Of a stretch of DNA of 64,000 nucleotides, positions 3,636 to 58,546 are shown piece after piece. The stretch is taken from positions 5,916 through 69,915 of the forward strand of contig CAYJVC010000004.1 in the NCBI GenBank assembly GCA_964373505.1, written 5' to 3'. The stretch comes from an uncultured Planctomycetia bacterium. Its GTDB lineage: Bacteria; Omnitrophota; Gorgyraeia; 2-02-FULL-51-18. A program made the position numbers and the translations under genes. Below the pieces are notes generated by a model. The model was not told where the DNA came from. It was given only the letters and a program-made list of their open reading frames with translations, and ran no database searches. Numbering within the stretch: the stretch's first letter is position 1; every line of letters starts with the position of its first letter.

Positions 3636-4658
3636 TTATTTGAAGCGGCTGTCAATGATGAGGCGGTTGTTTCTTAGCCGGATGCAGACAAAGCCGGGAA
3701 GATGCGTCTCAAGCAAGGGCTTATGCCCTGGCCGCAACATGTCAGCGACGGCCGCAAGGTGGGAAAACCCCACGCGCCGAGTGTCCCCTTTCACTTGGGT
3801 GAGCGCGCGGAGGATCACCTCTCTTTGAATAGCCGGGTGATAGCGTTGGAGCTTTTTTACGTGAAGGGTAGCCCGGCGTTTTGATCTTGTGCGGATCCGG
3901 CAAGCTTGAAGGGCGATACTTGAAATTCCGTCCAAACAATCCTGGATTTCCTGGCTGACCCGTTGGAGACTTGCCAAAGCGCTTTTGATGTTGGGGTTGA
4001 ATTCATGTTCAAGAACATGGAGCAAGCGGCGCCGAACGCGATTTCTTAAAAATGTCGTGTCGCGATTCGTTCTGTCGATGCAGAAGCGCAGTCCGTTTTT
4101 TCTTAAAAAACGGACCAGGGCACTTTTTTCAACATCCAGAAGAGGCCTCACCACCGCGAACCGGCCCTGGGCGCGTTTGTAGGGAATTCCCGACAGCCCT
4201 TTGATGCCCGAGCCTCGGATGATGCGCAAGAGCACGGTTTCGGCCTGGTCGTCGCGCGTGTGGGCGGTCGCGATGCTTTGGCAGCCGAAACGGCCGGCGA
4301 TTTTCTCAAAAAAACGGTAGCGTTCGATGCGGCCCGCTTCTTCGAGAGAGCGCCCGAGGCGCTTGGCGATCTCCTTAAGCTTAATTCTTTTGATCCGGAA
4401 CGGCAAACCGAGCTTTTCACAGCTCTGCCGGACAAGCGCTTCATGGCGTTTCGCCTGTTGAGGCCAAAGGCCGTGATTCACATGGGCCACGACGAGTTTC
4501 AGTGAGTATTTTTTCTGAAGCGCCAGGAGGATCCTCAAAAGCGCGATCGAATCAGGCCCGCCGGAAACGGCCAATACGATCGCGTCGTTTTTGTGGAACA
4601 GCGCGTGACGCTTACGGGTGAGCTCGACGGTTTCGAGTATTTTCTTGATGGACTTCAA
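3636..4658 (-). CDS. tilS: tRNA(Ile)-lysidine synthetase
   Basis: PP-loop SGGPDS (LAVSGGPDSIALL) and a TilS-like length of 340 aa. Confidence 0.85.
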   Translation of the reverse strand: MKSIKKILETVELTRKRHALFHKNDAIVLAVSGGPDSIALLRILLALQKKYSLKLVVAHVNHGLWPQQAKRHEALVRQSCEKLGLPFRIKRIKLKEIAKRLGRSLEEAGRIERYRFFEKIAGRFGCQSIATAHTRDDQAETVLLRIIRGSGIKGLSGIPYKRAQGRFAVVRPLLDVEKSALVRFLRKNGLRFCIDRTNRDTTFLRNRVRRRLLHVLEHEFNPNIKSALASLQRVSQEIQDCLDGISSIALQACRIRTRSKRRATLHVKKLQRYHPAIQREVILRALTQVKGDTRRVGFSHLAAVADMLRPGHKPLLETHLPGFVCIRLRNNRLIIDSRFK

Positions 4659-4675: not shown

Positions 4676-5143
4676 TCAGTATACGAAAATATACGTCGCC
4701 TTGTTCGAGGCGGGGTCGTATTCCACGTCCACCTCTGTTCCCGTCGCCAGCGACTTCACATCCCTGTCTTTTTCGCCGTCCGTGATGTCCGTGGTCTCAT
4801 CGACGTGGACGACGAGGCTTTTCGGGTTCGTGTCGGCCTCTGTTTCTCCGTAGAGTTTAACCGTGAGAGCCCCGGCGACTTCATCCAGCCCCGTGACCTC
4901 TCCGGAAATGAATTCCAGATTTTCCGCGTTCGCGATCTCGGCGTTTGGGGGCGTCGTTTCCGCCGGGGCCTGAGGCTCGGCCGGCTCCGTCACCTCCGTG
5001 GTCTCCGCGGTGGCTGCGGGAAGCGCTTGCGCGACCGGTGAGGCGGTTGTTTCGGTCGCGGCGCCGGCGCCTTCTTCAGCATGAGCGTTGTAACCGGCAA
5101 AACTGAAAGAACATAGAACGGCAACCAACAATAACTTTTTCAT
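4676..5143 (-). CDS. hypothetical secreted protein (signal peptide, acidic T/E/P/A-rich linker, small C-terminal domain)
   Basis: N-terminal MKKLLLVAVLCSFSFAGYNAHA signal peptide followed by a low-complexity region. Confidence 0.5.
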   Translation of the reverse strand: MKKLLLVAVLCSFSFAGYNAHAEEGAGAATETTASPVAQALPAATAETTEVTEPAEPQAPAETTPPNAEIANAENLEFISGEVTGLDEVAGALTVKLYGETEADTNPKSLVVHVDETTDITDGEKDRDVKSLATGTEVDVEYDPASNKATYIFVY

Positions 5144-5223
5144 GGGGTGCTCCGAGTGGTGATTGAGTTAGAGGGGGATTATACCATGAACCTGCGTCAT
5201 GTCAAAATAAAGGAGTTTACTCC

Positions 5224-9403: not shown

Positions 9404-10440
9404 AGATGGATATCCTTCAGGCTGTTGCGGAGGCCCTCGGAACTGGTCAAAAGTAACCGGCCGTTTTTGTTCTCCTCAATAAAGAGCGCTTCGATCCCTT
9501 CCTCTTTATGGCGATCAATGAATTCATAGCTTTTCTCGGGCCCCAGAATGAAGAAAAGGCGGCTTAAAAGGTTTGCGAACGCGATGTTCTCGGCCGTAAC
9601 CGTGACACCTACCACCCCATTCATCGGGGGCTCTCCGGTTTTAGGGTTGATCATAAGTGGAGTTCGCTTTCCCTTGTAGATAAAAAAATCCTCGTAGTCG
9701 CCGGTGCTGGAAGTAGCCTTCTCGACTTGAAGCTCGAGGATCGCCGCGTATTCGTCGATGTTTCGGGGGTGGTCGATGCCGAACCTCCAATGGCGGCTTT
9801 CAGGCGCCAAGCCTATCCAGCGCGTGTTTTCGCCGACTTTGATCATTGCGGAGGCGACTCCCTGGTTCTTTAAGTGCAAGAGCGCCTTATCGGCCGCGTA
9901 GCCCTGCGCCGGCGCGTCGACATTGATCTTGACGCCCGTTTTTTGACGCGTCAACGTCTTGGCGGTTGTGTCGAGATTTAGCCGCTGGTAGCCCGTCAGG
10001 GCCAGCGCTTCCTGTATGGCCTCCGCGGACGGAGGCTCGCTTTTTTCTTTGGCGTTCGCCCAGAGTGTTTTGAGCGGCACGTCCGTGATATCAAAAGCTC
10101 CGTCCGATATCCCGGCAAGTCTCAAGGATTCCCCGACGACGAAAAAAGTGTCATCGTCGAGCGTCACCGGCCGGCCGTCGGCGGAATGGTTGAACCGCCA
10201 GACGAGGCTCTCCTCGTTTTGGCTGTACATTTTGCCCTCAATGTCCTTAATGATCTCGAACGCCTTGTCGAGGAGGGTGGAATTTTTCTCGCGCGTCTGG
10301 CCGGCGCTGAAGATCGTGATCGTGAACGCCGTGCCCATGATATTCCGCGAGCGTTCAAGCTGTTTTTGCCCCAAATAGTCGGCGCCGGTCAGTGCCACGC
10401 AAAGACCGAGCGGCAAAACAAGTTGCAAAATTCTCTTCAC
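9400..10440 (-). CDS. apbE: FAD:protein FMN transferase (ApbE family), likely secreted
   Basis: ApbE-like body. The track ORF overlaps the hemL 3' end, so I place the start at GTG (VKRILQLVLPLGLCVALTGA signal-like N-terminus), 7 nt after the hemL stop. Confidence 0.65.
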   Translation of the reverse strand: MKRILQLVLPLGLCVALTGADYLGQKQLERSRNIMGTAFTITIFSAGQTREKNSTLLDKAFEIIKDIEGKMYSQNEESLVWRFNHSADGRPVTLDDDTFFVVGESLRLAGISDGAFDITDVPLKTLWANAKEKSEPPSAEAIQEALALTGYQRLNLDTTAKTLTRQKTGVKINVDAPAQGYAADKALLHLKNQGVASAMIKVGENTRWIGLAPESRHWRFGIDHPRNIDEYAAILELQVEKATSSTGDYEDFFIYKGKRTPLMINPKTGEPPMNGVVGVTVTAENIAFANLLSRLFFILGPEKSYEFIDRHKEEGIEALFIEENKNGRLLLTSSEGLRNSLKDIHL

Positions 10441-10447
10441 AGCGATC

Positions 10448-11698
10448 TCACCATTTTTCAAGAGCGCGAAGCGTTTTTTCGAATTCGCACGCCGTGTGGG
10501 AACCGGAAATGAAGCTCGTTTCAAACGCCGACGGCGGCACGTAAATCCCATATTCTAGCATCTTATGAAAAAATTTCCTGAATTCTTTTCTATCGGTTTT
10601 CATGACATCGCGAAAATGGACCGGTTGCCGAGCGCTGCAAAAGACCGTGAACATGGAGCCGAGGCTTTGGATCACCGCTTTTTTCTTTCGTCTGCGCAGC
10701 AGGACCCTCGCCTCTTTCAGGAAGGCCTTGGCGCTTTGGCCGAGAGCGGCATAGAAGGGCTTCGAGAGCCTGGAAAGCACCGACCGGCCGGCGACCATGG
10801 AAAGAGGGTTGCCCGAAAGCGTCCCCGCCTGATAAACCGGGCCTGCCGGCGAAAGCGCGTTCATGATCTCTTCCCGGCCGCCAAAGGCGCCGACCGGAAG
10901 CCCGCCGCCGATGATCTTTCCGAGTATCGTCAGATCCGGCTCGATGCCGTAGAGGTGTTGCGCGCCGCCGTAGCCGACGCGAAAGCCCGTGATCACCTCA
11001 TCGAAGATGAGAACCGCCCCCGCTTTTTTTGTTTCGCGTCTCAATCGACTCAAAAATTCTTTTTTAGCCGGGACCAGACCCATATTCGCGGCGACGGGTT
11101 CAACGATGGCACAGGCGATGTCCCGCGCGTTTTTAAAAAAGGCGGAGAGCTGGTCGGAATTATTGTATTCGAGCACCGTGGTCAGGCCGGCCAGTTCCTC
11201 CGGAACGCCGGCCGAATCGGGCGAGCCGAAAGTGGCAAGTCCGCTTCCCGCCTTCACGAGCAGGCTGTCGGCGTGGCCGTGGTAGCAGCCTTCGAATTTC
11301 ACGAGCCGCTTTCGGCCGGTGAATCCGCGCGCGAGCCTCACGGCGCTCATGACGGCCTCCGTGCCGGAACTTGTGAACCTTATTTTTTTGAGCGAGCCGA
11401 AGGCTTTTTGGATCTCTTTGGCCAGCGCCGTTTCGTATTCGGTGGCGGTGCCGAAGCTCGTGCCTCTCGAAGCCTGTTCCCGTATCGCTTTTGAAGTTTC
11501 TTCATCGGCATGGCCGAGAAGGATCGCGCCCCAGGACAGGCAATAATCAATGAGGCGTTTTCCGCCGTTGTCGAAGAGATACGGCCCCAGTCCCTGCCGC
11601 ATAAAAACAGGCTCCCCACCGACGGCCCTGAAGGCACGGACGGGGCTGTTGACGCCGCCGGCGATGCACCGCCGGGCTTGGCTCCAGGCGCGGCTCAC
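10448..11698 (-). CDS. hemL: glutamate-1-semialdehyde 2,1-aminomutase
   Basis: 416 aa with GGVNSPVRAF and LIFDEVITGFRVGYGGAQ motifs. It is class III aminotransferase-like and uses a GTG start. Confidence 0.9.
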   Translation of the reverse strand: MSRAWSQARRCIAGGVNSPVRAFRAVGGEPVFMRQGLGPYLFDNGGKRLIDYCLSWGAILLGHADEETSKAIREQASRGTSFGTATEYETALAKEIQKAFGSLKKIRFTSSGTEAVMSAVRLARGFTGRKRLVKFEGCYHGHADSLLVKAGSGLATFGSPDSAGVPEELAGLTTVLEYNNSDQLSAFFKNARDIACAIVEPVAANMGLVPAKKEFLSRLRRETKKAGAVLIFDEVITGFRVGYGGAQHLYGIEPDLTILGKIIGGGLPVGAFGGREEIMNALSPAGPVYQAGTLSGNPLSMVAGRSVLSRLSKPFYAALGQSAKAFLKEARVLLRRRKKKAVIQSLGSMFTVFCSARQPVHFRDVMKTDRKEFRKFFHKMLEYGIYVPPSAFETSFISGSHTACEFEKTLRALEKW

Positions 11699-11814
11699 CC
11701 CACCCCCTGCTTTCTTCCGCCATCCATAGTTTCAATCCCACGATTGGCGGAATGATTCGTCAAAGACGAATCAAAAAATCCGCGGGATTTTTTAGAAGCA
11801 GGGGGTGGGGTCAT
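11695..11814 (-). repeat. family-A palindromic intergenic element (copy a) with 39-aa linker micro-ORF MTPPPASKK...RKQGVG
   Basis: Arms CCCCACCCCCTGCTT / AAGCAGGGGGTGGGG. The micro-ORF ATG overlaps the hemB TGA (ATGA) and its TGA overlaps the hemL GTG (GTGA). Confidence 0.75.
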
Positions 11815-16288: not shown

Positions 16289-17107
16289 TCAATAGCCCCG
16301 GTGAAAGCCGGAGGGAGCGTAGATCGAGCTCATCAGCGTGATGAAGAGAAAAATGAATATGAATACGGTCCCCAGCGCGATCTTTTGGCCGCGCCGCAGC
16401 GCGCTTAGGCGGAAACAGAGCACGGTCCAGTACATCACGCAAGTAAGGAACGAGAGCGAAACCTTCGGGTCTTTCAGGATTTCCCCGAGGCCCCGCATTT
16501 CGCTGGCCCATATAAACCCGCTCGCGATCCCGAGCGAAAAGAGAACGACGCCGGCCGAGAGCGACACAAAATGAAGCCGGTCAAGCGTGTTGAGCGGCGG
16601 CAATTTCATGAGCATCCTTCCCGGGTGTTTGGACTTGAGCTGTGCCGACTGCAGAAGGTACATGACGGCAGCGGAGACCGAAAGGATGAGGCTCGTGAAT
16701 CCGCTTAAGATAAGCCCTGTGTGGATCCAGAGCCACGTGGACCGCTGCAGCGGAACCGCCGCCTCATGGGGGCGCGACAGAAGAACGGCCAAAAGACAGA
16801 ACAAAAGTACGATCGGCAGCGAAAAAAGAAGAAGGAAACGTGTTTTTGACCGCCACTCGATAATGAAGGAGGTCGTGATCATGAGAAACGAAACGCTCTC
16901 AATGGTCTGGGCGAGCGTTGTGATCGGGAAGACAGGGTTTTTCAGGAACCAGAATAAAAGCAGCGCGAAATGAACGAGCAGGCTCGCGAGCACGATCGAC
17001 CGGGCCGGTTTGTACAAAGCTTCGTTTTGCAGCTCGAAGCTTAGAAAGTAAAACACCAGGCCCGCCAGATACCCGAAAAAAACGGCTAGGAGCGCATACG
17101 GGGTCAT
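16289..17107 (-). CDS. hemX: CcsA-family integral membrane protein (HemX-like, as in the Bacillus hemAXCDBL cluster)
   Basis: 272 aa, multi-TM, with a cytochrome c assembly CcsA-like core. It sits directly upstream of hemA. Confidence 0.6.
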   Translation of the reverse strand: MTPYALLAVFFGYLAGLVFYFLSFELQNEALYKPARSIVLASLLVHFALLLFWFLKNPVFPITTLAQTIESVSFLMITTSFIIEWRSKTRFLLLFSLPIVLLFCLLAVLLSRPHEAAVPLQRSTWLWIHTGLILSGFTSLILSVSAAVMYLLQSAQLKSKHPGRMLMKLPPLNTLDRLHFVSLSAGVVLFSLGIASGFIWASEMRGLGEILKDPKVSLSFLTCVMYWTVLCFRLSALRRGQKIALGTVFIFIFLFITLMSSIYAPSGFHRGY

Positions 17108-33181: not shown

Positions 33182-34407
33182 GCCTTGTTTGACCTTTCGA
33201 GTTTGAATTTGTTGTGCAAAAGCCGGACCGCTTTTTCAGCCTCGCTTTTTTTGACGACGCAGGAGATCTTGATCTCGCTGGTGGAGATCATCTCGATATT
33301 GATCCTGTTCTTTCCGAGCGTCTCAAACATCGCGGCCGCAACACCCGCATGGCTTCGCATGCCGATGCCGACCACGGAGACCTTTGCGATATTCGGATCG
33401 AGCAGCACTTCTTTTGCGCCGATCTTCTTCGAGGCGGCTTTGAGCGCGTGCACGGCCCGGAGAGCGTCGCCTTTGGGCACCGTGAACGAGATGTCCGTGT
33501 TGAAGGCGGACTTCCCGATATTCTGGATGATCATGTCCACATGGATCCCCTTGTTCGCAAGGGTCTTAAAAATGCCCGCCGCGATGCCGGGCCGGTTGGG
33601 GACGCCTCGCACAGAAATTTTAGCTTCGTTTTTATTTAAAGTTACGCCGCGGATCAATACGTCTTCCATTGAGCTATCCTCCTTCACGATCCATGTGCCT
33701 TCGTTTTTTGTAAAACTGCTCCTGACATGAAGCGGAATATGGTGCTTACCGGCCAACTCGATAGACCGCGACTGCATGACCTGTGCGCCGCTCGAGGCCA
33801 TTTCCAGCATCTCCTCATAACTGATCTTCCGGATTTTCCTGGCTTTTTTCACAAGGCGCGGGTCCGTGGTGAATATTCCCTCGACATCCGTGTAGATCTC
33901 GCAGGCGTCGGCCTCCAGCGCCTTTGCAAGCGCAACCGCGGTTAGGTCGCTGCCGCCGCGGCCGAGTGTGGTGATGTCATTTTGCGGGTTGACTCCTTGA
34001 AAGCCCGCCACGATCACAACCTTCTTATTCTTAAGCTCCCGTAAAATACGTTGGGTATTGATATGGCGGATGCGCGCGCAGGTGTGCGCGGGGCTTGTGC
34101 GAATGCCCACCTGCCAGCCCGTAAATGAAACAGCCGCGCTCCCGAGCTTCTCGAGCGCCATCGCCAGAAGCGCCATGGAGACCTGCTCCCCCGTGGACAT
34201 CAGAACATCGAGTTCCCGCTCGGAAGGTTTTCGTGTGATCCGGGAAGCGAGCCCCAAAAGTTCGTCCGTCGTGTCGCCCAACGCACTCACCACGACCACG
34301 AGGCGGTGCCCTTTTTTTCGGGTGTCATCGATCCGGCGGGCGACATTTTTGATCCGGTCGGGATTTGCGACGCTTGAGCCGCCGAATTTCTGCACGATCA
34401 GTTTCAT
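33178..34407 (-). CDS. lysC: aspartate kinase
   Basis: MKLIVQKFGGSSVANPDRIKNVA start and C-terminal ACT domains. The track ORF includes a 15-aa extension that is really the family-A element. Confidence 0.9.
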   Translation of the reverse strand: MKLIVQKFGGSSVANPDRIKNVARRIDDTRKKGHRLVVVVSALGDTTDELLGLASRITRKPSERELDVLMSTGEQVSMALLAMALEKLGSAAVSFTGWQVGIRTSPAHTCARIRHINTQRILRELKNKKVVIVAGFQGVNPQNDITTLGRGGSDLTAVALAKALEADACEIYTDVEGIFTTDPRLVKKARKIRKISYEEMLEMASSGAQVMQSRSIELAGKHHIPLHVRSSFTKNEGTWIVKEDSSMEDVLIRGVTLNKNEAKISVRGVPNRPGIAAGIFKTLANKGIHVDMIIQNIGKSAFNTDISFTVPKGDALRAVHALKAASKKIGAKEVLLDPNIAKVSVVGIGMRSHAGVAAAMFETLGKNRINIEMISTSEIKISCVVKKSEAEKAVRLLHNKFKLERSNKA

Positions 34408-34490
34408 CCCACCACCTCTTTTCGAGGCGGCATAGCCGCCTCCGCGTGACAAACTGAAATTGAAAATTTCAAAAGAGGGGGTGGGGTCAT
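34404..34490 (-). repeat. family-A palindromic element (copy b) with 28-aa micro-ORF MTPPPLLKFSISVCHAEAAMPPRKEVVG
   Basis: Arms CCCACCCCCTCTTTT / AAAAGAGGTGGTGGG. Its ATG overlaps the apgM TGA and its TGA overlaps the lysC ATG (ATGA at both ends). Confidence 0.75.
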
Positions 34491-35632
34491 TTCAAAAAAT
34501 GCTCCATGAGCGGGTGTCCTTCAGGGAATTGAAGTTTGCTTTGAGCCGCCGTTTTTTCGTTGAAGCCCGGGTGCTTTTCCGCGGCGAATCCGTGCCCCGC
34601 GATGAGGAACGGCACCGGCCCGTGAGCAGCCGAACGGCTCGCGGAGGATGTCGCCGTGTCCGTGCAAACGAGCAAACGGTGATCCCCCAGGTTTTCCAGG
34701 CACTTCGTGGCAATTCCCACAACCTGCGCATCAAAGCGTTCGATCAGACGAATTTTTGTTTTCCAGGGATCGGTTTCGGGTTGTACCTGGTCTGCGGCCA
34801 TGTACACGAACGTGAGTTCATGGTTTCGGAGCGCCTTTTCAAGGTCGTCGACGACCTTGAAACCCAGGGACAGTCCGAGCCCCTTGGCAAAATCAGCCTG
34901 AGAAAATACGGCGCCGTCCACGCCAAAGCGATCCTTGAAACGGGGAAGCCGGGGCCGGCGGCCCTGCCCCCAGGGCCAGATCATGTTCGCCGGATTTTCC
35001 CCGAGGTCTATCCTGACCCGGTTGATCTCATGGTGCTCCAGAACGGTCTTGGATTTTTCCATGAGACTTGTGATGACCTCGGCGTCTTCCCCCTTCGGGA
35101 GCACCTTGGCCATTTTCTGACCGATCGCCCGTGAAGGCGGAACGCACTCCAGCTCATCGAGACTTTCGGCCTTTTCAGGGTCACGGATCATCAGGATATT
35201 TTTGTAGCCTTCTCTCGGATAGAACTTGATCTGCGGGCTTGAGAGTTTTTTATTGAGTTCCTCGATCAAGAGTGAGGACTCCTCGGGCGGAATGAAGCCT
35301 GCGCTTACATCTGCCAGAAGCCCGTCCGAAACCGTGACAAGGTCGCAGCGGAACGCGATCTCATTGTCGTCCTGGGAGATACCGGCTGCGGCGGCCTCAA
35401 GCGGCGCAACCCCCGTGTAAAATTCTTCCGGAGGGTAACCCAGAATGGCCATCGCCGCGACGTCGCGTGTTAGGGCCAATTTAGGCGACGTGAAGATCGC
35501 CGAACCCACACGGCCTTTTTTTGCCAATTGATGCAAAAATGGGGCTTTTGCCAGTTCCATCGGCGTGCGGCCGCCCAGAGCCTCGACCGGATCGTCCGTG
35601 GCCGCTTCGCAAACCAACACCGCGTATTTCAC
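34487..35632 (-). CDS. cofactor-independent phosphoglycerate mutase (archaeal ApgM type); by context a candidate non-orthologous homoserine kinase
   Basis: 381-aa ApgM-family protein that starts with GTG. It is embedded between lysC and thrC with hom upstream, and no classical thrB is present in the block. Confidence 0.6.
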   Translation of the reverse strand: MKYAVLVCEAATDDPVEALGGRTPMELAKAPFLHQLAKKGRVGSAIFTSPKLALTRDVAAMAILGYPPEEFYTGVAPLEAAAAGISQDDNEIAFRCDLVTVSDGLLADVSAGFIPPEESSLLIEELNKKLSSPQIKFYPREGYKNILMIRDPEKAESLDELECVPPSRAIGQKMAKVLPKGEDAEVITSLMEKSKTVLEHHEINRVRIDLGENPANMIWPWGQGRRPRLPRFKDRFGVDGAVFSQADFAKGLGLSLGFKVVDDLEKALRNHELTFVYMAADQVQPETDPWKTKIRLIERFDAQVVGIATKCLENLGDHRLLVCTDTATSSASRSAAHGPVPFLIAGHGFAAEKHPGFNEKTAAQSKLQFPEGHPLMEHFLK

Positions 35633-35715
35633 CCCATCCCCTCTTTCTGAGGCGCCAACGGCGCCTCGGCGTTGTACGCTGAAATTGAAAAATTCAAAAG
35701 AGGGGATGGGGTCAT
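35629..35715 (-). repeat. family-A palindromic element (copy c) with micro-ORF MTPSPLLNFSISAYNAEAPLAPQKEGMG
   Basis: Arms CCCCATCCCCTCTTTT / AAAGAGGGGATGGGG. It makes an ATGA overlap with the thrC stop and a GTGA overlap with the apgM-like start. Confidence 0.75.
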
Positions 35716-39226: not shown

Positions 39227-39256
39227 AAGTATAACAAAGCCGTGGAGAACGGTCAA
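39227..39256 (-). promoter_or_regulatory. putative sigma70 promoter (TTGACC-18-TATACT) upstream of gpsA
   Basis: Read on the minus strand in the 89-nt gap between the 39278 gene and gpsA. Confidence 0.45.
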
Positions 39257-39277
39257 TTAAAATGGAATCGAGTGGGC

Positions 39278-39661
39278 TTAACGCGTTTCGGTGGAAAGGT
39301 GCTGGTCGGAAACCATATCGTATTTGATGCTGTGCATGAACACGACGGCAAAGATATGGAGGTCCTGTACGACGTAGAAGCTGCCTATCACACGGTAGAG
39401 CATCTGGCCGATGCCTGTTTTTTGATCGTAGATTTTGCGGATCGTGACGTGGCGGTCTTTTTTCGGGTGGTTTTGAGAATGGTGATTCATCCAATATTTC
39501 AGCTCCTCGGGATCCCGGATCTCATTCTGTTCCGAAACATAGTAAGTGTATTTCTTCTCGGCCTTCGCCACAAAGCCCTCCATATCAATGATCTCTACGA
39601 TAGAGAGATTCTTGCGGTGGTGATTACCCGAGGTTGAAGATTTGATCATTACTTCTCTCAT
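39278..39661 (-). CDS. hypothetical protein (127 aa, Lys/His-rich, no recognised family)
   Basis: ORF immediately downstream of a 128-nt strongly AT-rich island. It is the only gene in the window with its own obviously foreign-looking upstream region. Confidence 0.4.
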   Translation of the reverse strand: MREVMIKSSTSGNHHRKNLSIVEIIDMEGFVAKAEKKYTYYVSEQNEIRDPEELKYWMNHHSQNHPKKDRHVTIRKIYDQKTGIGQMLYRVIGSFYVVQDLHIFAVVFMHSIKYDMVSDQHLSTETR

Positions 39662-41506: not shown

Positions 41507-43309
41507 TTAGGACTCGATCTTTAAAGCGGCCAGGAATGCCTCTTGTGGGATCTCCACTTTGCCGAACTGTTTCATGCGCTTCTTGCCCTCTTTCTGCTTT
41601 TCCCACAGCTTGCGTTTTCTCGTGATGTCGCCGCCGTAGCATTTGCTCGTGACGTTTTTTCCCATGGGCCTTACGGATTCGCGCGCGATGATCTTTCCCC
41701 CGATCGCGGCCTGGATGACCACCTCGAACATCTGCCTGGGGATGAGCTCCTTTAGTTTTTCGCAGAGCGCGCGGCCCTTTGTTTGGGCCTTATCGTGATG
41801 CACCATGGAACTGAACGAATCGCAGATCTCCGAGTTGATGAGGATGTCGAGTTTCACGACGTCACTATCCCGGTGCCCCTTCACCTCGTAGTCCAGCGAG
41901 CCGTAACCCTTCGAAATGGATTTGACGCGGTCATAGAAATCAACGATGATCTCGGCCAGCGGAAAGTCATAGATCACTTTGACCCTCTCCTCGTCGATAT
42001 GCTCGGTGGAAATGTACCGACCGCGGCGTTGCTCGCAGAGCTCAAAGATCGCGCCGATGCAATTTTGGGGAATGAGGATGGCGGCATGTACGAACGGCTC
42101 AAGGATTTCCCGGACCTGGCTCGGATCCGGCATCTTGGAAGGATTGTCCACTTCAACGAGGTTTCCGTCTAACTTCCGCACCTTGTAGACGACGCTGGGC
42201 GTGGTGATGACGAGACTCATGCCATATTCGCGCTCCAGTCTTTCCTGCACGATCTCCATATGGAGAAGTCCGAGGAATCCGCACCGGAAGCCAAACCCGA
42301 CGGAAGCCGAGTTTTCTATTTCATAAACGAACGAGGAGTCGCTCAAGGACAGTTTTTCTATCGAGTCCTTCAGCGCCTGGAAATCCGCAGAGTTGACCGG
42401 ATAAATGCCGGCAAACACGAGCGGGCGGATCTTCTTGTAACCCGGGAGCGCTTCCTCCGTCGGACTCAGCGCGTCCGTGACGGTGTCCCCGTTTTCCACC
42501 TCTTTTGCGTTTCGGATGTTGCAAGAGACATAGCCGACTTCGCCGGGCCCGAGGGATTCACAAGCTGTAGGTTTGGGCGTCAGGTTGCCGATGCCCAACA
42601 CATCGTAGGTTTTCCCCGCGGCCAGCATCTTTATTTTCATGCCCTTTTTCAGGACCCCGTTGAACACACGAACGTACACGATCACGCCCTGGTATGCGTC
42701 GTACTGGGAGTCAAAAATAAGCGCCTGAAGCTTTTTAGCCGGGTCCCCTTCCGGCGGCGGGATCACCTCCACCACCCGATCCAGGATTTGGGTGATGCCG
42801 GTCCCCATCTTGGCGCTGGCGAGCAGGATCTCATGCTCGTCGATTCCGAGATATTTGTGGATCTGTTTTTTTACCTTTTCCGGTTCGGCCGTGCCGAGGT
42901 CTATCTTATTGATGACGGGAATGATCTCGAGGTCATTCTCCATCGCCAGGTACAGATTGGCCACGGTTTGCGCCTCGACGCCCTGACCGGCGTCCACAAG
43001 AAGCAGCGCCCCCTCGCAGGCGCGCAGGGACTTGGCGACCTCGAACGTGAAGTCCACGTGGCCCGGCGTGTCGATCAGGTTGAGCGTGTAGTTCTTGCCG
43101 TCTTTTTTGGAATGATAATTGATCTTGACCGCGCTCGCCTTGATCGTGATGCCGCGCTCCTGCTCCAGCGCCATATCGTCCAGGAGCTGGTTGTGGAATG
43201 TGCGGCTGTCAATGGCGCCGGTGTGCTCGAGGATACGGTCGGCTAGCGTGGACTTGCCGTGATCGATATGCGCGATGATCGAAAAATTACGGATATGCGC
43301 CTGCCTCAT
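41507..43309 (-). CDS. lepA: elongation factor 4
   Basis: 600 aa with a GTPase start IRNFSIIAHIDHGKSTLADR and a LepA C-terminal domain. Confidence 0.95.
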   Translation of the reverse strand: MRQAHIRNFSIIAHIDHGKSTLADRILEHTGAIDSRTFHNQLLDDMALEQERGITIKASAVKINYHSKKDGKNYTLNLIDTPGHVDFTFEVAKSLRACEGALLLVDAGQGVEAQTVANLYLAMENDLEIIPVINKIDLGTAEPEKVKKQIHKYLGIDEHEILLASAKMGTGITQILDRVVEVIPPPEGDPAKKLQALIFDSQYDAYQGVIVYVRVFNGVLKKGMKIKMLAAGKTYDVLGIGNLTPKPTACESLGPGEVGYVSCNIRNAKEVENGDTVTDALSPTEEALPGYKKIRPLVFAGIYPVNSADFQALKDSIEKLSLSDSSFVYEIENSASVGFGFRCGFLGLLHMEIVQERLEREYGMSLVITTPSVVYKVRKLDGNLVEVDNPSKMPDPSQVREILEPFVHAAILIPQNCIGAIFELCEQRRGRYISTEHIDEERVKVIYDFPLAEIIVDFYDRVKSISKGYGSLDYEVKGHRDSDVVKLDILINSEICDSFSSMVHHDKAQTKGRALCEKLKELIPRQMFEVVIQAAIGGKIIARESVRPMGKNVTSKCYGGDITRKRKLWEKQKEGKKRMKQFGKVEIPQEAFLAALKIES

Positions 43310-43392
43310 GCGGGTTTCACCCCACCCTCTGATCGGCTCATCTTTGATGAACCGATCGCTCTAAGATCGTTGCGATCAGGCGGTGGGGTCAT
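43306..43392 (-). repeat. family-A palindromic element (divergent copy d) with micro-ORF MTPPPDRNDLRAIGSSKMSRSEGGVKPA
   Basis: Arms CCCCACCGCCTGATCG / CGATCAGAGGGTGGGG. It makes ATGA overlaps with the phosphohexomutase stop and with the lepA ATG. Confidence 0.7.
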
Positions 43393-48151: not shown

Positions 48152-48938
48152 GGATGGCCTTTGCGAACGGGCGCACAAATTTTTTTGCGAACGCCTCGGC
48201 GTTCAAATGAAGATGCGCGGCCAGCGTGTTTACCAGGGCGCTGCCTACGATGACGCCGTCGGCGATCTTTGACACCTGCTTCGCACGGGCAGGATCTGAG
48301 ACGCCGAAACCCACGCACACCGGGAGTGCCGTCATTTTCTTGATAGCGGAAATATTTTTACGGACGCTCTCCGTCACAAGGTGATGGGCGCCGGTTACGC
48401 CGGTCAGGGAAACGTAGTAAATAAAACCCCTCGAGGCTCCTACGATAAGCCGGCGCCGTGCCCCGGTGCTTGTGGGCGCCAAAAGATACACCAGGTCCAC
48501 GCCGTTCCTGCGCATGAGCGCGCGGATGTCTTTTTCCTCGTCCGGCGGTAGGTCCGGCACTATCAAACCGTCCACGCCGGAGTCGCGCGCGGCCTTCGCG
48601 AAATGAGCCGGGCCCATCGCGAGGATCGGATTGAGATAGCTCATGAGGAGGATCGGGGTGCTTGATTTCCTGCGGGCTTTTTTCACAAGCGCTAAAATTT
48701 TACGCAGCGTCGTGTGTCGCTTGAGCGACCGGTTGGAAGCCTCCTGGATGACGGGCCCGTCCGCCAAGGGGTCTGAAAAAGGCACCCCCAGCTCAATGAG
48801 GTCCACCCCCGCCTTCTCCAATGTGCCGATCAACTCCCCGGTCATTTTGAGGCTTGGGTCGCCGGCCGTGATAAAAACGACAAGCGCCTTTTTCCCTTCC
48901 TTTTTCAGCGCTTTGAATTTTTTTTCTATACGATTCAC
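48144..48938 (-). CDS. trpA: tryptophan synthase alpha chain
   Basis: 264 aa that starts with GTG and is typical of TrpA (LVVFITAGDPSL...). Confidence 0.9.
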   Translation of the reverse strand: MNRIEKKFKALKKEGKKALVVFITAGDPSLKMTGELIGTLEKAGVDLIELGVPFSDPLADGPVIQEASNRSLKRHTTLRKILALVKKARRKSSTPILLMSYLNPILAMGPAHFAKAARDSGVDGLIVPDLPPDEEKDIRALMRRNGVDLVYLLAPTSTGARRRLIVGASRGFIYYVSLTGVTGAHHLVTESVRKNISAIKKMTALPVCVGFGVSDPARAKQVSKIADGVIVGSALVNTLAAHLHLNAEAFAKKFVRPFAKAIHD

Positions 48939-49021
48939 CCCACCCCCTCCTTTTGAGACAACGATGTTGTCTCAATGCTATGCATCAAAATTGAAAATTT
49001 TAAAGGAGGGGGTGGGGTCAT
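48935..49021 (-). repeat. family-A palindromic element (copy e) with micro-[31 protein letters not shown]
   Basis: Arms CCCCACCCCCTCCTTT / AAAGGAGGGGGTGGGG. It makes an ATGA overlap with the trpB stop and a GTGA overlap with the trpA start. The AAGGAGG Shine-Dalgarno site lies in the 3' arm. Confidence 0.8.
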
Positions 49022-51698: not shown

Positions 51699-52717
51699 TA
51701 GGCAACGTCCCGCGTGAACGAAGCGATCCTTTCAAGTGCCCCGTAAGCCGCACCCGACGCTAAGTGTTTTCGAACGGCCTCTACTCCTTCCTTCAGCGAG
51801 GCCGCCTTTCCGGCCACGTAGAGTGCGGCGCCCGTATTCAAAAAAACGATATCGCCGTGCGCGCCGCGCTCGCCTTTTAGGACGCCCATGGCCGCGGCCT
51901 TGCAGTCGTCCAGGGTTAGACACTGAATGTTCTCTAGCCGAGCTTTTTTGATCCCAAGATCGCCGGGTGAAACCGTATAACTTTTGACCCTGCCTTTATC
52001 CAGTTCAGCGACCCGTGTTTCATCGCAGGTGGTTATTTCGTCGAGCCCGTCCTTTCCATGGACTACGAGCGCGCGTTTTGAGCCAAGCTCCAGGAGCGTC
52101 TTAGCGAGCGTTCCCACAAGCCGCTCGTCATACACGCCGATCAACTGGTAAAGCGCGCCGGCCGGATTTGAAAGCGGTCCGAGCAGGTTGAATAGGGTCT
52201 TGCCCCCGATCTTTTTCCGGGCGGGCATCGCGTATTTCGTGGCTTCGTGAAATTTGGGCGCGAAGAAGAAACCAAAATTATTTTGGTCGATGCAGGCCTC
52301 GATGGCCGGAACGGGCAGGTCTATCCTTACCCCCAGCGCTTCGAGAAGGTCCGCGCTGCCGCATTGGCTCGAAACCGAGCGGTTGCCGTGTTTGCCGACC
52401 TTGACGCCCATCGAGGCGGCGGTCAGCGCCGAGAGCGTTGAGATATTGAGCGTATGCTTGGCGTCCCCGCCCGTGCCGCAGGTATCCAGAAGTTCGGCGT
52501 AACGTCGGGTGAGCTTCAGCGCATGTTGGCGCATGACCTTGGCTGCGGCCGCGATCTCTTCGGCCGTTTCACCCTTGTCTCTCAAGAGGAGGAGAAATTC
52601 TTCGATCTCCGGGTCCCTCAAGACGCCTGTCATGATAGCCTCCATCATGTGTGTCATGTCGGCCGGGCTTAAGGGCTCTTTTTTACCTAATTTGAAAAAG
52701 ACGTCGTTGACTATCAT
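51698..52717 (-). CDS. trpD: anthranilate phosphoribosyltransferase
   Basis: CGTGGDAKHTLNISTL...KHGNRSVSS motifs. Confidence 0.9.
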   Translation of the reverse strand: MIVNDVFFKLGKKEPLSPADMTHMMEAIMTGVLRDPEIEEFLLLLRDKGETAEEIAAAAKVMRQHALKLTRRYAELLDTCGTGGDAKHTLNISTLSALTAASMGVKVGKHGNRSVSSQCGSADLLEALGVRIDLPVPAIEACIDQNNFGFFFAPKFHEATKYAMPARKKIGGKTLFNLLGPLSNPAGALYQLIGVYDERLVGTLAKTLLELGSKRALVVHGKDGLDEITTCDETRVAELDKGRVKSYTVSPGDLGIKKARLENIQCLTLDDCKAAAMGVLKGERGAHGDIVFLNTGAALYVAGKAASLKEGVEAVRKHLASGAAYGALERIASFTRDVA

Positions 52718-53286
52718 TATTGGGTCAGACGGAGGAAATTTTTCAGGATCTCTTTGCCGGACTGCGTCAGGATGGATTCAGGATGGAACTGGACTCCGTA
52801 AACCGGGTATCGTTTGTGTTGAAGGCCCATGATCTCCTTTTCCCGGGTCTCGGCCGTGATCTCCAGCTCTTTCGGCAGGCTTTTTCTTTCGACCAAAAGC
52901 GAGTGGTACCTTGTACCGATGAACGGATTATCGATATTTTTGAAGATCCCCTTCCCGGTGTGGTGAATCCGCGAGGTTTTTCCGTGCATGAGCCTGGCCG
53001 CACCCACCACTTTTCCGCCGTAGGCTTCGCCTATGCACTGATGCCCCAGGCAGACGCCGAGGATCGGGACCTTGTCGCCGAGCTTTTGGATGATCTGGAG
53101 GGAAATGCCGGCCTGCTTCGGGTTGCCGGGGCCCGGCGAGATCACGATGCGGCTTGGTTTCATTTTTTTGATCCGGGGTATCGTGATTTCGTCATTCCTG
53201 AAAATTTTAAGTTCCTGCCCCATTTCGCCCAGGTACTGCACGAGGTTATAAGTGAACGAGTCATAATTGTCGATCATCAGGATCAC
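52717..53286 (-). CDS. trpG: anthranilate synthase component II (glutamine amidotransferase)
   Basis: [18 protein letters not shown]...GVCLGHQ. I place the start at GTG, overlapping the micro-ORF TGA; the track ORF reads on into the repeat. Confidence 0.85.
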
Positions 53287-53438
53287 CCCATCCCCTCCTT
53301 TTGAGACGACATTGCCCCATCCCCCGTTTGAATGATTGCTTCGCAATCAGTTCGCGGAGCGAACCAAACAGGGGATGGGGTTGTCGTCCCAATGCTTTGC
53401 ATAAGAATTGAAAATTCTAAAGGAGGGGATGGGGTCAT
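53283..53438 (-). repeat. family-A element (copy f) with nested internal duplicate; 51-aa micro-ORF MTPSPPLEFSILMQSIGTTTPSPVWF...SSQKEGMG
   Basis: Outer arms CCCCATCCCCTCCTTT / AAAGGAGGGGATGGGG plus an inner CCCCATCCCCTGTTTG / CAAACGGGGGATGGGG pair. ATGA overlap with the trpE stop and GTGA overlap with the trpG start. Confidence 0.75.
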
Positions 53439-54931
53439 GGCGCACCTCCGCCTTCGGCGGATTCGATCGCTTTGAGAAGCGCTCGGGCTTTATTGACGGT
53501 CTCCTGATATTCATGCTTGGGGACGGAGTCCGTCACAATGCCCGCCCCCGCCTGCACGGTGGCGACGCCGTTCTTCACCAATAGGGTGCGGATCGCAATG
53601 CAGGAGTCGAGGTTCCCCGAGTAGCTGAAATAACCCACGATGCCGGAATAAAGACCGCGCTTCTGGTTCTCCAGTTCGTCGATGATCTCCATGGCCCTCA
53701 CCTTGGGAGCTCCTGAGACCGTGCCCGCCGGGAATGTCGCGCGCAAAAGGTCGAAAGGCGTCCCGCCTTTTTTCATAAGTCCCTCCACGGTGCTCACGAT
53801 GTGCATGACATGTGAATAACGCTCGATCGTCATAAATTCGGGCACTTTCACGGATTTAAATTCGCAAACACGGCCCAGGTCATTGCGACCGAGGTCCACA
53901 AGCATCAGGTGCTCGGCGCGTTCCTTCGGGTCGTTCAGAAGTTCCTTTTCAAGTTTCAAGTCCTCTCGGGGGCTTTTGCCGCGGCGCCGCGTGCCTGCGA
54001 TCGGCCGGAGAGTCGCCTTTCGGTCCTCACAACGCACATGCATTTCAGGCGACGAGCCGACGATTTGGAAATCTTCGCAATTCAAATAAAACATGTAGGG
54101 CGAGGGGTTGATGGAACGAAGCGCGCGGTAAATATCGAACGCGTCCGAGTGAACGGCCGTGCGGAACGACTGAGACAGCACGACCTGAAAAATATCGCCC
54201 GCCTTGATGTAGCGCTTGGCGGTGAGAACGGCTTTCTCAAAGGCCGCTTTCGTGAAATTAGAATCAACTTTAGGCCCATTAGAGGAAGCGGCTTCCGGGT
54301 GTGAACCCGCGCCTGCCGCGGCGGCCCTCAACTTTCGGATCTGGTGATCTATTTTCTCGCACGCGTGCGCGTAAGCCTCCTCGGCGCTCGTGAATTCGTC
54401 CAAAAAAACATTGGAGACGACTTTGATCTTTTGATTCAACCGGTCAAAAATGAACAGCGTATCGGTAAAAATAAAGATCGAGTCGGGAAGTTGAAGCGTG
54501 TCTTTGTTTTTATCGGGGATCCGCTCGATGAATCGCACCGTGTCGTAACCCAAGTAACCGACCGCGCCTCCGGCGAACGGGGGGAGTCCTTTCACCGGCA
54601 CGGTGCGGTAGCGTTTGAGAAGTTTCTCAAGCTCACCGAGCGGATCGCGCCGTGTCTCGAAGGATTCTTCGACGCCGTTCTTCAGCAACGTGATGCGCCG
54701 TCCCTTGCTCTTAAAGACGAGCGAAGGCTCCCCGCCGAGGAACGAATAGCGCGCGACGCGCTCACCGCCTTCCACGGATTCGAGAAGGTAGGCATAGGGC
54801 CGGTCCCCCATTTTAAGGAACGCGGAAACCGGCGTGTCCAGGTCCGCCAGGATCTCGCGGTAAACGGGGATCAGGTTCCCTTTTCTTGCGAGTTTCAGGA
54901 AGTCGCTTTTACCCGGAAAAAAAGAAGCCAC
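53435..54931 (-). CDS. trpE: anthranilate synthase component I
   Basis: 498 aa with a chorismate-binding C-terminal domain (GAGIVTDS...). Confidence 0.9.
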   Translation of the reverse strand: MASFFPGKSDFLKLARKGNLIPVYREILADLDTPVSAFLKMGDRPYAYLLESVEGGERVARYSFLGGEPSLVFKSKGRRITLLKNGVEESFETRRDPLGELEKLLKRYRTVPVKGLPPFAGGAVGYLGYDTVRFIERIPDKNKDTLQLPDSIFIFTDTLFIFDRLNQKIKVVSNVFLDEFTSAEEAYAHACEKIDHQIRKLRAAAAGAGSHPEAASSNGPKVDSNFTKAAFEKAVLTAKRYIKAGDIFQVVLSQSFRTAVHSDAFDIYRALRSINPSPYMFYLNCEDFQIVGSSPEMHVRCEDRKATLRPIAGTRRRGKSPREDLKLEKELLNDPKERAEHLMLVDLGRNDLGRVCEFKSVKVPEFMTIERYSHVMHIVSTVEGLMKKGGTPFDLLRATFPAGTVSGAPKVRAMEIIDELENQKRGLYSGIVGYFSYSGNLDSCIAIRTLLVKNGVATVQAGAGIVTDSVPKHEYQETVNKARALLKAIESAEGGGAP

Positions 54932-56271: not shown

Positions 56272-56984
56272 ACTTGAATAGCTTCTTTTAGCGTGAATTT
56301 GTTCTCATAAAGCGCTTTGCCTATCACGACCCCCCGGATGTTCTTTTTCTTGAGTTTCATCAGCGCTTCGAGGTCCTTCAGCGAACTCACGCCCCCGGAG
56401 GCGATAAGGTCGAGGTTCACGGCTTCACTGGCGTTTTTTATCTCTTTGATGTTCAACCCGGAAAGAGCCCCGTCCTTTGAAATATCCGTGTAGATCACGG
56501 TTTGCCCGCCGAGCTTTTCAAATTCTTTGATGAATTGGACGGCATTTATTTTTGTGACCTTTGTCCAGCCGTCCGTCGCGATGAGCCCGTCCCGTGCATC
56601 GACGCCGATGATCGCCTTCTCCTTAAGCTCGGACACGAGCTCTTTTATGAATCCTCTGTCGAGACACGCCTGGGTGCCGAAAATGACCCACCCGGCGCCC
56701 ATCGCCAGATACCTAGCCGCGGTTTGGAGGCTGCGGATGCCGCCTCCCACCTCGACCGGGGTCCGCACGGCGTTTAAGATCCGCTCGATCGTCTTTATGT
56801 TTTTCGGCTCGCCTTTCAGCGCCCCGTCCAGGTCCACCACGTGGATCCTGGACGCCCCCTCCTCTTCAAAGCGCCTGGCGATATCTTCCGCCTTTTCCGA
56901 ATAGATCTTTTCGGCCTTGAAGTCTCCTTGGAAAAGACGGACAACCTTACCGTCCTTGAGGTCGATCGCGGGGATAGGGATCAC
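56253..56984 (-). CDS. hisA: 1-(5-phosphoribosyl)-5-[(5-phosphoribosylamino)methylideneamino]imidazole-4-carboxamide isomerase
   Basis: Starts with GTG: (M)[16 protein letters not shown]... Confidence 0.9.
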
Positions 56985-57067
56985 CCCGCCCCCTCTTTCC
57001 GAGGCGCCAGCGGCGCCTCGACGTTGCAGGTTGAAATTAAAAATTTTGAAAGAGGGGGTGGGGTCAT
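56981..57067 (-). repeat. family-A palindromic element (copy g) with micro-[31 protein letters not shown]
   Basis: Arms CCCCACCCCCTCTTTC / GAAAGAGGGGGCGGGG. Its ATG lies 6 nt after the hisH TAG stop and its TGA overlaps the hisA GTG. Confidence 0.75.
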
Positions 57068-57828: not shown

Positions 57829-58451
57829 AATTTCCCTTTTGTTGAAGGGATAAACTTAATGCGTTCGTCGAGCGCCGTGGCCCAATCGAGCGCCTTGGCA
57901 AGCGCTTTAAAGGTCGCTTCGATGATGTGGTGAGACTGCTCGCCCGCGATGAAATCCACGTGCAGCGTAAGCCCTAGGTGTCCGGCGAACGACTCCCAAA
58001 AGTGTTTGGCGTCCGCGAGCGTGTAGTCCCGATCGCCTTTTTTTTCACGAAGCGCCGGGTGATCGATCCATTTTGTTTTCGGGTGAGTGTGCATATGAAA
58101 CGAACCGCGTCCGCTCAAGTCAATGGACACGCGTGTTTGGGTCAGCGCCTCGTCGAGCGGTGCGCGGAAATCCGCGAATCGCCGTATCCCTTTTTTGTCG
58201 CCCAGCGCTTTTTTGAACGCCTCCCCGAGCGCTATGCCGACGTCTTCGTTCGTGTGGTGCTTGTCAATGTGAAGGTCCCCTTTGGCCTTGAGCACAAGAT
58301 CAAACAGCCCGTGCTTGGCCAAAGTTTCGAGCATATGGTCCAAAAAACCGATGCCGGTGCTGACTTTTGCACGGCCCTTGCCGTCGATGTTGAGCTCGAC
58401 GACAACGCTTGTTTCCTTCGTTTTTCTGCTATACTTAACCGCTCGTTTCAT
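57825..58451 (-). CDS. hisB: imidazoleglycerol-phosphate dehydratase
   Basis: 208 aa with IGFLDHML, HHTNEDVGIALG and HIIEATFKALA motifs. Confidence 0.9.
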   Translation of the reverse strand: MKRAVKYSRKTKETSVVVELNIDGKGRAKVSTGIGFLDHMLETLAKHGLFDLVLKAKGDLHIDKHHTNEDVGIALGEAFKKALGDKKGIRRFADFRAPLDEALTQTRVSIDLSGRGSFHMHTHPKTKWIDHPALREKKGDRDYTLADAKHFWESFAGHLGLTLHVDFIAGEQSHHIIEATFKALAKALDWATALDERIKFIPSTKGKL

Positions 58452-58546
58452 GTCAGCCCCGTTTTTTCACCCCATCCCCTATTTCGTGACGCAAAGCGTC
58501 ACCTTTTGATTTGCTTTGCAAATCAAGAAATAGGGGATGGGGTCAT
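58452..58546 (-). repeat. family-A palindromic element (degenerate copy h); micro-ORF truncated to MTPSPIS
   Basis: Arms CCCCATCCCCTATTTC / GAAATAGGGGATGGGG with a different internal loop. ATGA overlap with the hisD stop. hisB uses its own ATG 20 nt downstream. Confidence 0.65.

Follow-up and report, generated by a model that had tools for sequence, protein, structure and literature searches.

The trpE-trpG spacer

The stretch analyzed here, 64,000 nt (64 kb) of contig CAYJVC010000004.1 from a metagenome-assembled genome (MAG) of the Omnitrophota (assembly GCA_964373505.1; hereafter the window), carries a tryptophan operon in the order trpEGDCFBA, in which the identities of trpE, trpG, trpD, trpB, and trpA were confirmed by Pfam. 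Between trpE and trpG lies a 156-base spacer (53438..53283, minus strand) composed of ATGA, a 149-nt palindromic core, and TGA. Our data point toward the origin of this spacer by two successive insertions of MITE-like elements (MITE, miniature inverted-repeat transposable element) of one family of Candidatus Omnitrophota, a reading to which we assign a probability of roughly 0.8. The features of the locus are as follows (TIR, terminal inverted repeat; ORF, open reading frame).

53435..54931, minus strand: trpE, anthranilate synthase component I (Pfam Chorismate_bind and Anth_synt_I_N; in the ORF list), with its TGA stop at 53435-53437
53283..53438, minus strand: micro-ORF of 51 codons, from the overlap with the trpE stop to the overlap with the trpG start
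53435..53437, minus strand: left TGA of the 3-bp target-site duplication, doubling as the trpE stop; empty sites in relatives have GTGA or ATGA once
53286..53434, minus strand: composite core, 149 nt (80-nt A-type element, 66-nt inner element, and 3-nt duplication)
53419..53434, minus strand: outer 5' TIR, CCCCATCCCCTCCTTT
53404..53418, minus strand: outer hairpin 1, AGAATTTTCAATTCT; folds, with covariation
53392..53402, minus strand: outer hairpin 2, ATGCAAAGCAT; folds, with covariation
53382..53390, minus strand: 5' arm of outer hairpin 3, GGGACGACA, whose last bases overlap the left CAA
53381..53383, minus strand: left CAA of the 3-bp duplication made by the inner insertion
53315..53380, minus strand: inner element, 66 nt, with TIRs and two hairpins
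53365-53380 and 53315-53330, minus strand: inner arms, CCCCATCCCCTGTTTG and CAAACGGGGGATGGGG, 16 nt each, 94% complementary, 34 nt apart
53350-53364, minus strand: inner hairpin GTTCGC-TCC-GCGAAC
53333-53349, minus strand: inner hairpin TGATTGC-GAA-GCAATCA
53312..53314, minus strand: right CAA of the inner-insertion duplication
53303..53311, minus strand: 3' arm of outer hairpin 3, TGTCGTCTC
53286..53301, minus strand: outer 3' TIR, AAAGGAGGGGATGGGG
53283..53285, minus strand: right TGA of the duplication, which is the micro-ORF stop and, with the element's last base, G53286, gives the trpG GTG at 53284-53286
52717..53286, minus strand: trpG, glutamine amidotransferase component of anthranilate synthase (Pfam GATase), starting at the regenerated GTG

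Together with A53438, the left TGA forms ATGA, and the old start ATG (53436-53438) now opens the micro-ORF. At the other end, a Shine-Dalgarno motif, AAGGAGG (53294-53300), lies within the outer 3' arm, 7 nt upstream of the GTG. The outer arms including their flanks measure 23 nt and are 91% complementary.

The inner 66-nt unit bears the family termini CCCCAYCCCC.../...GGGGRTGGGG and has a CAA direct repeat on either side. Excision of these 66 + 3 nt restores exactly 80 nt, which align without gaps with four other 80-nt A-type copies and are identical to the copy between trpB and trpA at 69 of 80 positions. The point of insertion is the apical loop of outer hairpin 3 (duplicated positions 52-54; consensus loop 53-55). 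The interior of the inner unit resembles that of the outer element no more than background sequence does (identity of 0.55 forward and 0.53 reverse; background, 0.45 to 0.55), and its layout, TIR-hairpin-hairpin-TIR, is that of stand-alone 66- to 69-nt copies (loci L011 and L004a/b, and window position 43320). Compared with L011, the interior reaches an identity of 0.67 in reverse orientation versus 0.52, which is a modest difference, and the inner arms are similar to those of L012. The inner unit is therefore not an A-type copy but a member of a different subfamily, with the termini alone in common.

A preliminary description, made from the letters of the window, had presented the spacer as an element inserted into an element: a 156-nt copy with outer arms, a second internal pair, and a 51-aa micro-ORF from the ATGA at the trpE stop to the GTGA at the trpG start. 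Sequence, coordinates, and frame are as it gave them, and the insertion is borne out by the gap-free alignment, the CAA duplication, and the recovery of exactly 80 nt. The inner unit does have terminal repeats of its own, for which the description advised testing (the 16-nt TIRs listed above), but the 24 residues it ascribed to that segment have to be corrected to 23 codons, the inserted length being 69 nt. Its concern that the inner repeat might be a chance palindrome can be put aside, since family termini are present and the 10-mer CCCCATCCCC occurs 8 times in the window versus 0.19 expected (0 of 100 shuffles reached 8); the 16-mer arm, with up to three mismatches, has 17 window matches versus 1.4 expected. 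The assignment of the inner unit to family A, on the other hand, was mistaken. The description had also allowed for internal duplication, that is, for inner arms copied in place from the outer element or an expansion of the palindrome. The identical first 10 nt of inner and outer arms (CCCCATCCCC) would fit such an event, but we reject it in favor of nested insertion and find it barely credible, because the inner unit has its own 3-bp CAA duplication, its removal restores the canonical 80 nt exactly, its interior is at background similarity, and its layout recurs in stand-alone copies at other loci and in other MAGs.

Nor does an assembly artefact, with reads of two repeat copies collapsed or chimerised at the junction, offer a convincing explanation; we consider it very improbable. 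The window does come from a MAG, the repeats have 10 to 16 nt in common at their ends, repeat families are a known cause of mis-assembly, and the gap-containing tandem pair at L014 (see below) resembles a scaffolding problem. However, the common ends are far shorter than typical k-mers or reads, and an exact 3-bp duplication, the restoration of 80 nt, and an intact frame are unlike the product of a chimera. Furthermore, a Logan contig (run ERR4904390), possibly built from the same reads, runs through the structure and is identical to the window across all 2878 nt, nested part included.

The family in the window and in related genomes

A search of the 64-kb window with the termini located eight sites with nine units, one site being the composite. 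The other seven are as follows.

48938..49017, minus strand: 80-nt A-type copy, trpB/trpA, the closest un-nested relative of the outer element (69/80 identical); site empty in L131
34407..34486, minus strand: 80-nt A-type copy, apgM/lysC junction
35632..35711, minus strand: 80-nt A-type copy, thrC-like/apgM junction
56984..57063, minus strand: 80-nt A-type copy, hisH/hisA, at the hisA start codon; site empty in L002
58470..58542, minus strand: 73-nt two-hairpin copy, hisD/hisB
43320..43388, minus strand: 69-nt two-hairpin copy, pgm/lepA, of the structural class of the inner unit
11698..11810, minus strand: 113-nt copy, hemB/hemL junction

On the gene strand, ATGA precedes and TGA follows the element at all eight sites. 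When one genome per species was scanned with a paired-end pattern, 11 more copies of 66 to 89 nt emerged, all in MAGs labelled Omnitrophica or Planctomycetia; the first 11 nt are common and the rest is divergent, with inverted repeats of 16 to 20 nt and two or three hairpins each. Units located in other MAGs number 12 in all. In viral contigs, the family pattern had no match. Apart from the 149-nt composite, units are 50 to 113 nt long, and the sole ORF is a read-through frame of 28 to 51 codons. Arms of 16 to 21 nt with at most two mismatches are found in 20 of 22 elements, the terminus CCCCAYCCCCT is common to all subfamilies, and TGA flanks every one of the 10 copies that were located without TGA as a search requirement. 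The preliminary description had seen in the nested copy a sign of recent proliferation, which is not supported: the 80-nt A-type copies are only 65 to 86% identical to each other.

That the family inserts with a 3-bp TGA duplication follows from unoccupied sites in syntenic relatives, which exist for four of the junctions occupied in the window. At hisD/hisB, L002 has the unoccupied AAATGAAAAAACG, compared with AAATGA[73 nt]TGAAAAAACG in the window. At trpE/trpG, L002, L130, L131, and L132 have GTGA or ATGA once; hisH/hisA is unoccupied in L002, and trpB/trpA is unoccupied in L131. The family thus has every structural hallmark of MITEs except a known parent insertion sequence (IS). In the window, the eight occupied sites, six of them stop/start overlaps, stand against seven unoccupied -4 overlaps, which means that roughly every second candidate NTGA junction of this Omnitrophota stretch holds a member of the family. 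The only copy outside NTGA is the nested one, at CAA; on present data, targeting and selection are inseparable as causes of the confinement to NTGA.

Two further genomes have family-like sequence at trpE/trpG. In L133 (GCA_002779345.1, PEWW01000193.1, positions 3998-4017), the junction reads ATGA AGGAGGCGACGGGG TGA, a relic of 14 nt that lies between two TGA copies, resembles the right, Shine-Dalgarno-bearing arm of a family member, and now serves as the ribosome-binding site and GTG start of trpG. In L003 (ENA ERZ27254759, positions 1573-1629; TrpE identity of 81%), a different, 50-nt family-like element has shortened arms (CCCCACCAC...GTGGTGGGG); L002, a third relative that is just as distant from the window in TrpE, has the junction unoccupied. 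The TrpE identities do not resolve the tree, and the L003 element and the L133 relic may be either orthologous to the outer copy of the window or independent insertions.

Other arrangements were noted as well. At L014 (4224-4491), two 81-nt copies stand head to tail with one TGA in common, the second being broken by a run of N; the pair either arose by tandem insertion at the regenerated GTGA or is an artefact of scaffolding. In the window, the gene of an apgM-like phosphoglycerate mutase (34487-35632) lies between two A-type copies of 80 nt in the same orientation (34407-35711), a composite-transposon-like arrangement in which mobilisation of the gene could in principle occur. Two candidates were dismissed. 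The spacer at 5144-5223 is 80 nt long but has no relation to the family, and it contains a near-consensus promoter-like site (TTGACA-17-TATAAT) that stands upstream of the gene at 4676-5143; the other candidate, a solo end-like motif at 21507, falls in coding sequence.

Start codons, reading frames, and the predicted RNA fold

In members of the family, the last G of the element and the duplicated TG make a new GTG, with the Shine-Dalgarno motif within the repeat arm. Position -4 of the sites (A in 13, G in 4, T in 3, and C in 1) reads as a start codon, and in 21 of 22 elements, the frame from this left NTG has no stop before it reaches the right TGA or joins that of the new GTG. Element length decides between the two: with 3n+2, the stop falls exactly at the right TGA, and with 3n, the frame is that of the new GTG. 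Composition-matched shuffles of the interiors were open in 0.09 to 0.81 of trials, and one-third of random lengths fall into the wrong class; over about 15 independent subfamilies, 21 open frames in 22 elements are very unlikely to have arisen by chance (about 1e-6 to 1e-7 by our estimate). The peptide sequences of the micro-ORFs are not conserved; the constraint lies on read-through and not on the product.

In the window, the chain of overlapping stops and starts is kept in seven of the eight copies; six have ATGA...GTGA with an open frame, and the seventh (43320) is relayed via a further overlap. At this pgm/lepA copy (43300-43392), an ORF runs from the ATG at the pgm stop through the element to a TGA that overlaps the ATG of lepA; if the element were absent, the genes would be bridged by an ORF of 4 codons, ATG AAA CCC GCA TGA. 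The 73-nt hisD/hisB copy (58430-58545) is the sole failure of the frame rule, having a length of 3n+1 and a stop after seven codons. It is also the only site at which the regenerated GTG is not the gene start: this GTG opens a 5-codon ORF that ends 1 nt before the hisB ATG (58451), and therefore, the N terminus of HisB differs from that in L002.

As the preliminary description had proposed, the frame of the composite survived the second insertion, and this is an instance of a property of the whole family. The inserted 69 nt are 23 stop-free codons in the register A/CC CCA ..., as in a canonical insertion, although for a single nested event, retention of the frame could occur by chance with a probability of about 0.3 to 0.4. 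Owing to the terminus CCCCAYCCCC, every micro-ORF starts with MTP(P/S)P (MTPPPP in the trpB/trpA copy, 48935-49021; also 53283-53438), and it is imaginable that this polyproline start stalls ribosomes on the 5' arm of the stem. The 51-aa peptide had no homologue in the protein collection.

For the composite, structure prediction gives a single nested rod (-99.3 kcal/mol; z = -11), with the inner stem standing where hairpin 3 otherwise has its loop; the un-nested trpB/trpA copy has the same predicted fold minus the inner stem. Among the five A copies, compensatory changes affect 12 of 35 pairs, which argues that the fold is maintained. In the predicted rod, the 3' arm, in which the Shine-Dalgarno motif and the GTG are located, has the 5' arm as its partner; the latter follows closely on the trpE stop and lies where the micro-ORF begins. 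No promoter-like or terminator-like site and no tandem repeat was found in the composite. At the gathering score, Rfam 15 reported only two tRNAs in the window and no family for the element; a microRNA-precursor hairpin matched the spacer region below threshold (21 bits versus 77 required).

Origin of the composite and comparison with known systems

The following history would account for the locus. An 80-nt A-type element would have entered the TGA of an ancestral overlap (NTGA) between the trpE stop and the trpG start. Afterwards, the left TGA would still stop trpE, the last G of the element and the duplicated TG would start trpG, the 3' arm would provide AAGGAGG 7 nt upstream of the new GTG, and the old ATG would open a short ORF through the element, ending at the TGA that overlaps the new GTG. 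Later, a 66-nt two-hairpin member would have entered the apical loop of the resident hairpin 3 with duplication of CAA, adding 69 nt, or 23 stop-free codons, and extending the micro-ORF from 28 to 51 codons with both overlaps kept. Mobilisation would be by a DDE-type transposase acting in trans. The outer repeat stem may hide the Shine-Dalgarno motif and the GTG in the mRNA; ribosomes that finish trpE or read the micro-ORF would open the stem and re-initiate at the GTG, so that trpG would stay coupled and the function of the operon should have been retained after insertion. Of this account, the sequences themselves show the anatomy, the duplications, the unoccupied sites, and the frame rule. 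The nested copy is a by-product to be expected from a MITE family that is active. We further suggest that these elements form an undescribed class of "stealth" MITEs in Omnitrophota, whose ends have evolved to make it almost neutral to insert at a start codon or an NTGA stop/start overlap: the start codon and ribosome-binding site are rebuilt, and length and sequence are selected for read-through and coupling, the coupling possibly being gated by the repeat stem and the polyproline start MTPPP. For this broader proposal, we see the odds as even. Under it, the CAA duplication would mean that TGA is not an absolute requirement of the enzyme and that confinement to NTGA results from selection or from start-codon-directed targeting.

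Several observations weigh against the history of two insertions and its mechanism. A transposase turned up in none of the 25 window ORFs scanned, and neither the window nor about 150 kb of other loci yielded a long-range pair of ends bounding an IS. A metagenome scan for the nesting signature (left end-left end-right end) gave no second nested copy; its 115 hits were unrelated C-rich simple repeats, none with TGA-flanked family ends. The outer copy alone at trpE/trpG, the intermediate that the preliminary description had recommended looking for, was found in no genome, because the closest available relatives are only about 81% identical in TrpE. The CAA duplication of the nested copy is a single atypical event compared with TGA in 10 of 10 copies, and the two assemblies showing the nested structure may share reads. 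Within each subfamily, the copies all point the same way with respect to the gene strand (5/5, 4/4, and 3/3; a chance of about 1/512 under random orientation), which a symmetric-ended DDE element inserting randomly would not predict; since most copies are open in both orientations, openness of the ORF does not explain the uniformity. Finally, translation of the micro-ORF and the mechanism of coupling are parts of the model that we infer.

This uniform orientation would be consistent with a mobilisation of single-stranded DNA by an HUH/Y1 enzyme, as for IS200/IS605-type PATEs or RAYT-mobilised REPINs, with insertion into an extruded hairpin loop. The elements are indeed rich in hairpins, the target of the nested copy is an apical hairpin loop, and the covariation between arms suggests selection on the folded form. 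However, elements of the IS200/IS605 type make no target duplication and have a fixed right-end cleavage motif. In the present family, the 3 nt at the right end vary with the target (TGA or CAA) and must be removed to restore the empty site and the 80-nt outer element. The long, true TIRs are also unlike IS200/IS605 ends, and among the window ORFs scanned there is no gene for a Y1 transposase or RAYT; hence, we judge this route to be quite unlikely. Somewhat less improbable, although still doubtful, is that the elements are intercistronic RNA modules selected by the host for translational coupling or mRNA stability, with mobility ancient or incidental and the longer rod kept for trpE/trpG stoichiometry. 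Compensatory changes in all stems, the near-universal open frame, the Shine-Dalgarno motif and GTG embedded in the stem, the restriction of copies to gene starts inside housekeeping operons, and the L133 relic, which keeps only the Shine-Dalgarno/GTG-bearing arm, speak for such modules. The module is dispensable, however, since relatives function with a bare 4-nt overlap at the same junctions; furthermore, the peptides are not conserved and only one copy is nested. In any case, selection of this kind concerns the persistence of copies and not the origin of the nesting, and it is compatible with two successive insertions.

Like bacterial MITEs, the family is small, non-coding, and multi-copy, has TIRs, target-site duplications, and stable hairpins, varies in presence between relatives, and lies in transcribed operon spacers. 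It differs in the size of its units (66 to 113 nt, compared to 178 to 235 bp with 9-bp duplications in Chunjie), in a duplication of 3 bp that is nearly always the TGA of an NTGA gene start, in termini that rebuild a GTG and carry a Shine-Dalgarno motif, and in having no known parent IS. The MITE reviews and surveys examined mention neither start-codon-rebuilding termini nor nested prokaryotic copies nor Omnitrophota. In plants, nesting of MITEs in MITEs is common; nested MITEs were reportedly described there by Jiang and Wessler in 2001. Nesting in itself is ordinary, as mobile elements do land in one another, and the present copy is above all the clearest internal evidence of mobility and of a 3-bp duplication whatever the target. 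IS1397, ISKpn1, and ISPpu9/10 insert into palindromic repeats (Tobes & Pareja 2006, PMC1525189). As in those cases, a mobile element sits in a hairpin of another repetitive palindromic element, but here both partners are tiny, non-autonomous members of one family. Short, hairpin-rich repeats in operon spacers with uniform orientation and arm covariation are likewise known as REP/BIME, REPINs, and PATEs, from which the family differs by its target-varying duplication (TGA/CAA) and its long TIRs.

More interesting than the nesting is the family as a whole, in which MITE ends act as a portable Shine-Dalgarno motif and start codon. A similar arrangement is found in the mycobacterial MIRUs, which are direct, often tandem repeats used as variable-number tandem repeats and have no TIRs. 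The family has inverted repeats of 16 to 20 nt and a 3-bp duplication, forms no tandem array, and belongs to a different phylum; what the two have in common is the ATGA...GTGA arrangement with an open micro-ORF. MIRUs insert at start codons with an internal ORF coupled at -4 nt, which minimizes the impact on expression (Supply et al. 1997, summarised in PMC12548453). If read-through and coupling hold true, the family would be a natural counterpart of MIRUs with TIRs and target-site duplications and would provide ready-made natural "bicistronic design" linkers. Rickettsia palindromic elements are mobile palindromic units with an open frame that insert in frame with host ORFs (PMC10969869). Members of the family with a length of 3n likewise share the frame of the downstream gene, whose product they would extend by 23 to 29 residues if the old start were used; the Rickettsia elements, however, measure about 150 bp and lie inside coding regions, whereas the family lies at start codons and supplies an internal restart (Shine-Dalgarno motif and GTG), and therefore, the native protein can still be made. 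[quoted passage not shown]

As to the genes around these elements, 52 of the 55 long, non-overlapping ORFs of the window are on the minus strand, and therefore, the copies in the window have one orientation relative to transcription and, presumably, replication. The three plus-strand ORFs (10016-10378, 16587-16973, and 39242-39637) are without a Pfam match, and it is possible that they are not genes. Exact-protein look-ups gave no match for TrpG or TrpE, and the sole match for TrpD was in the identical Logan contig. The closest homologues of TrpE bear names that place the MAG in Candidatus Omnitrophota. From its GTG, trpG encodes a GATase protein of 189 aa; the GTG is followed by ATC CTG ATG ATC GAC..., and the encoded N terminus is the same as in relatives that use the -4 overlap start. 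Gene callers set the start not at the overlap GTG but at the internal ATG, which explains the absence of the 189-aa product from the records; the mis-set start yields a 186-aa product in the Logan contig (L001, 376-936) as well as in L002 (11437-11997).

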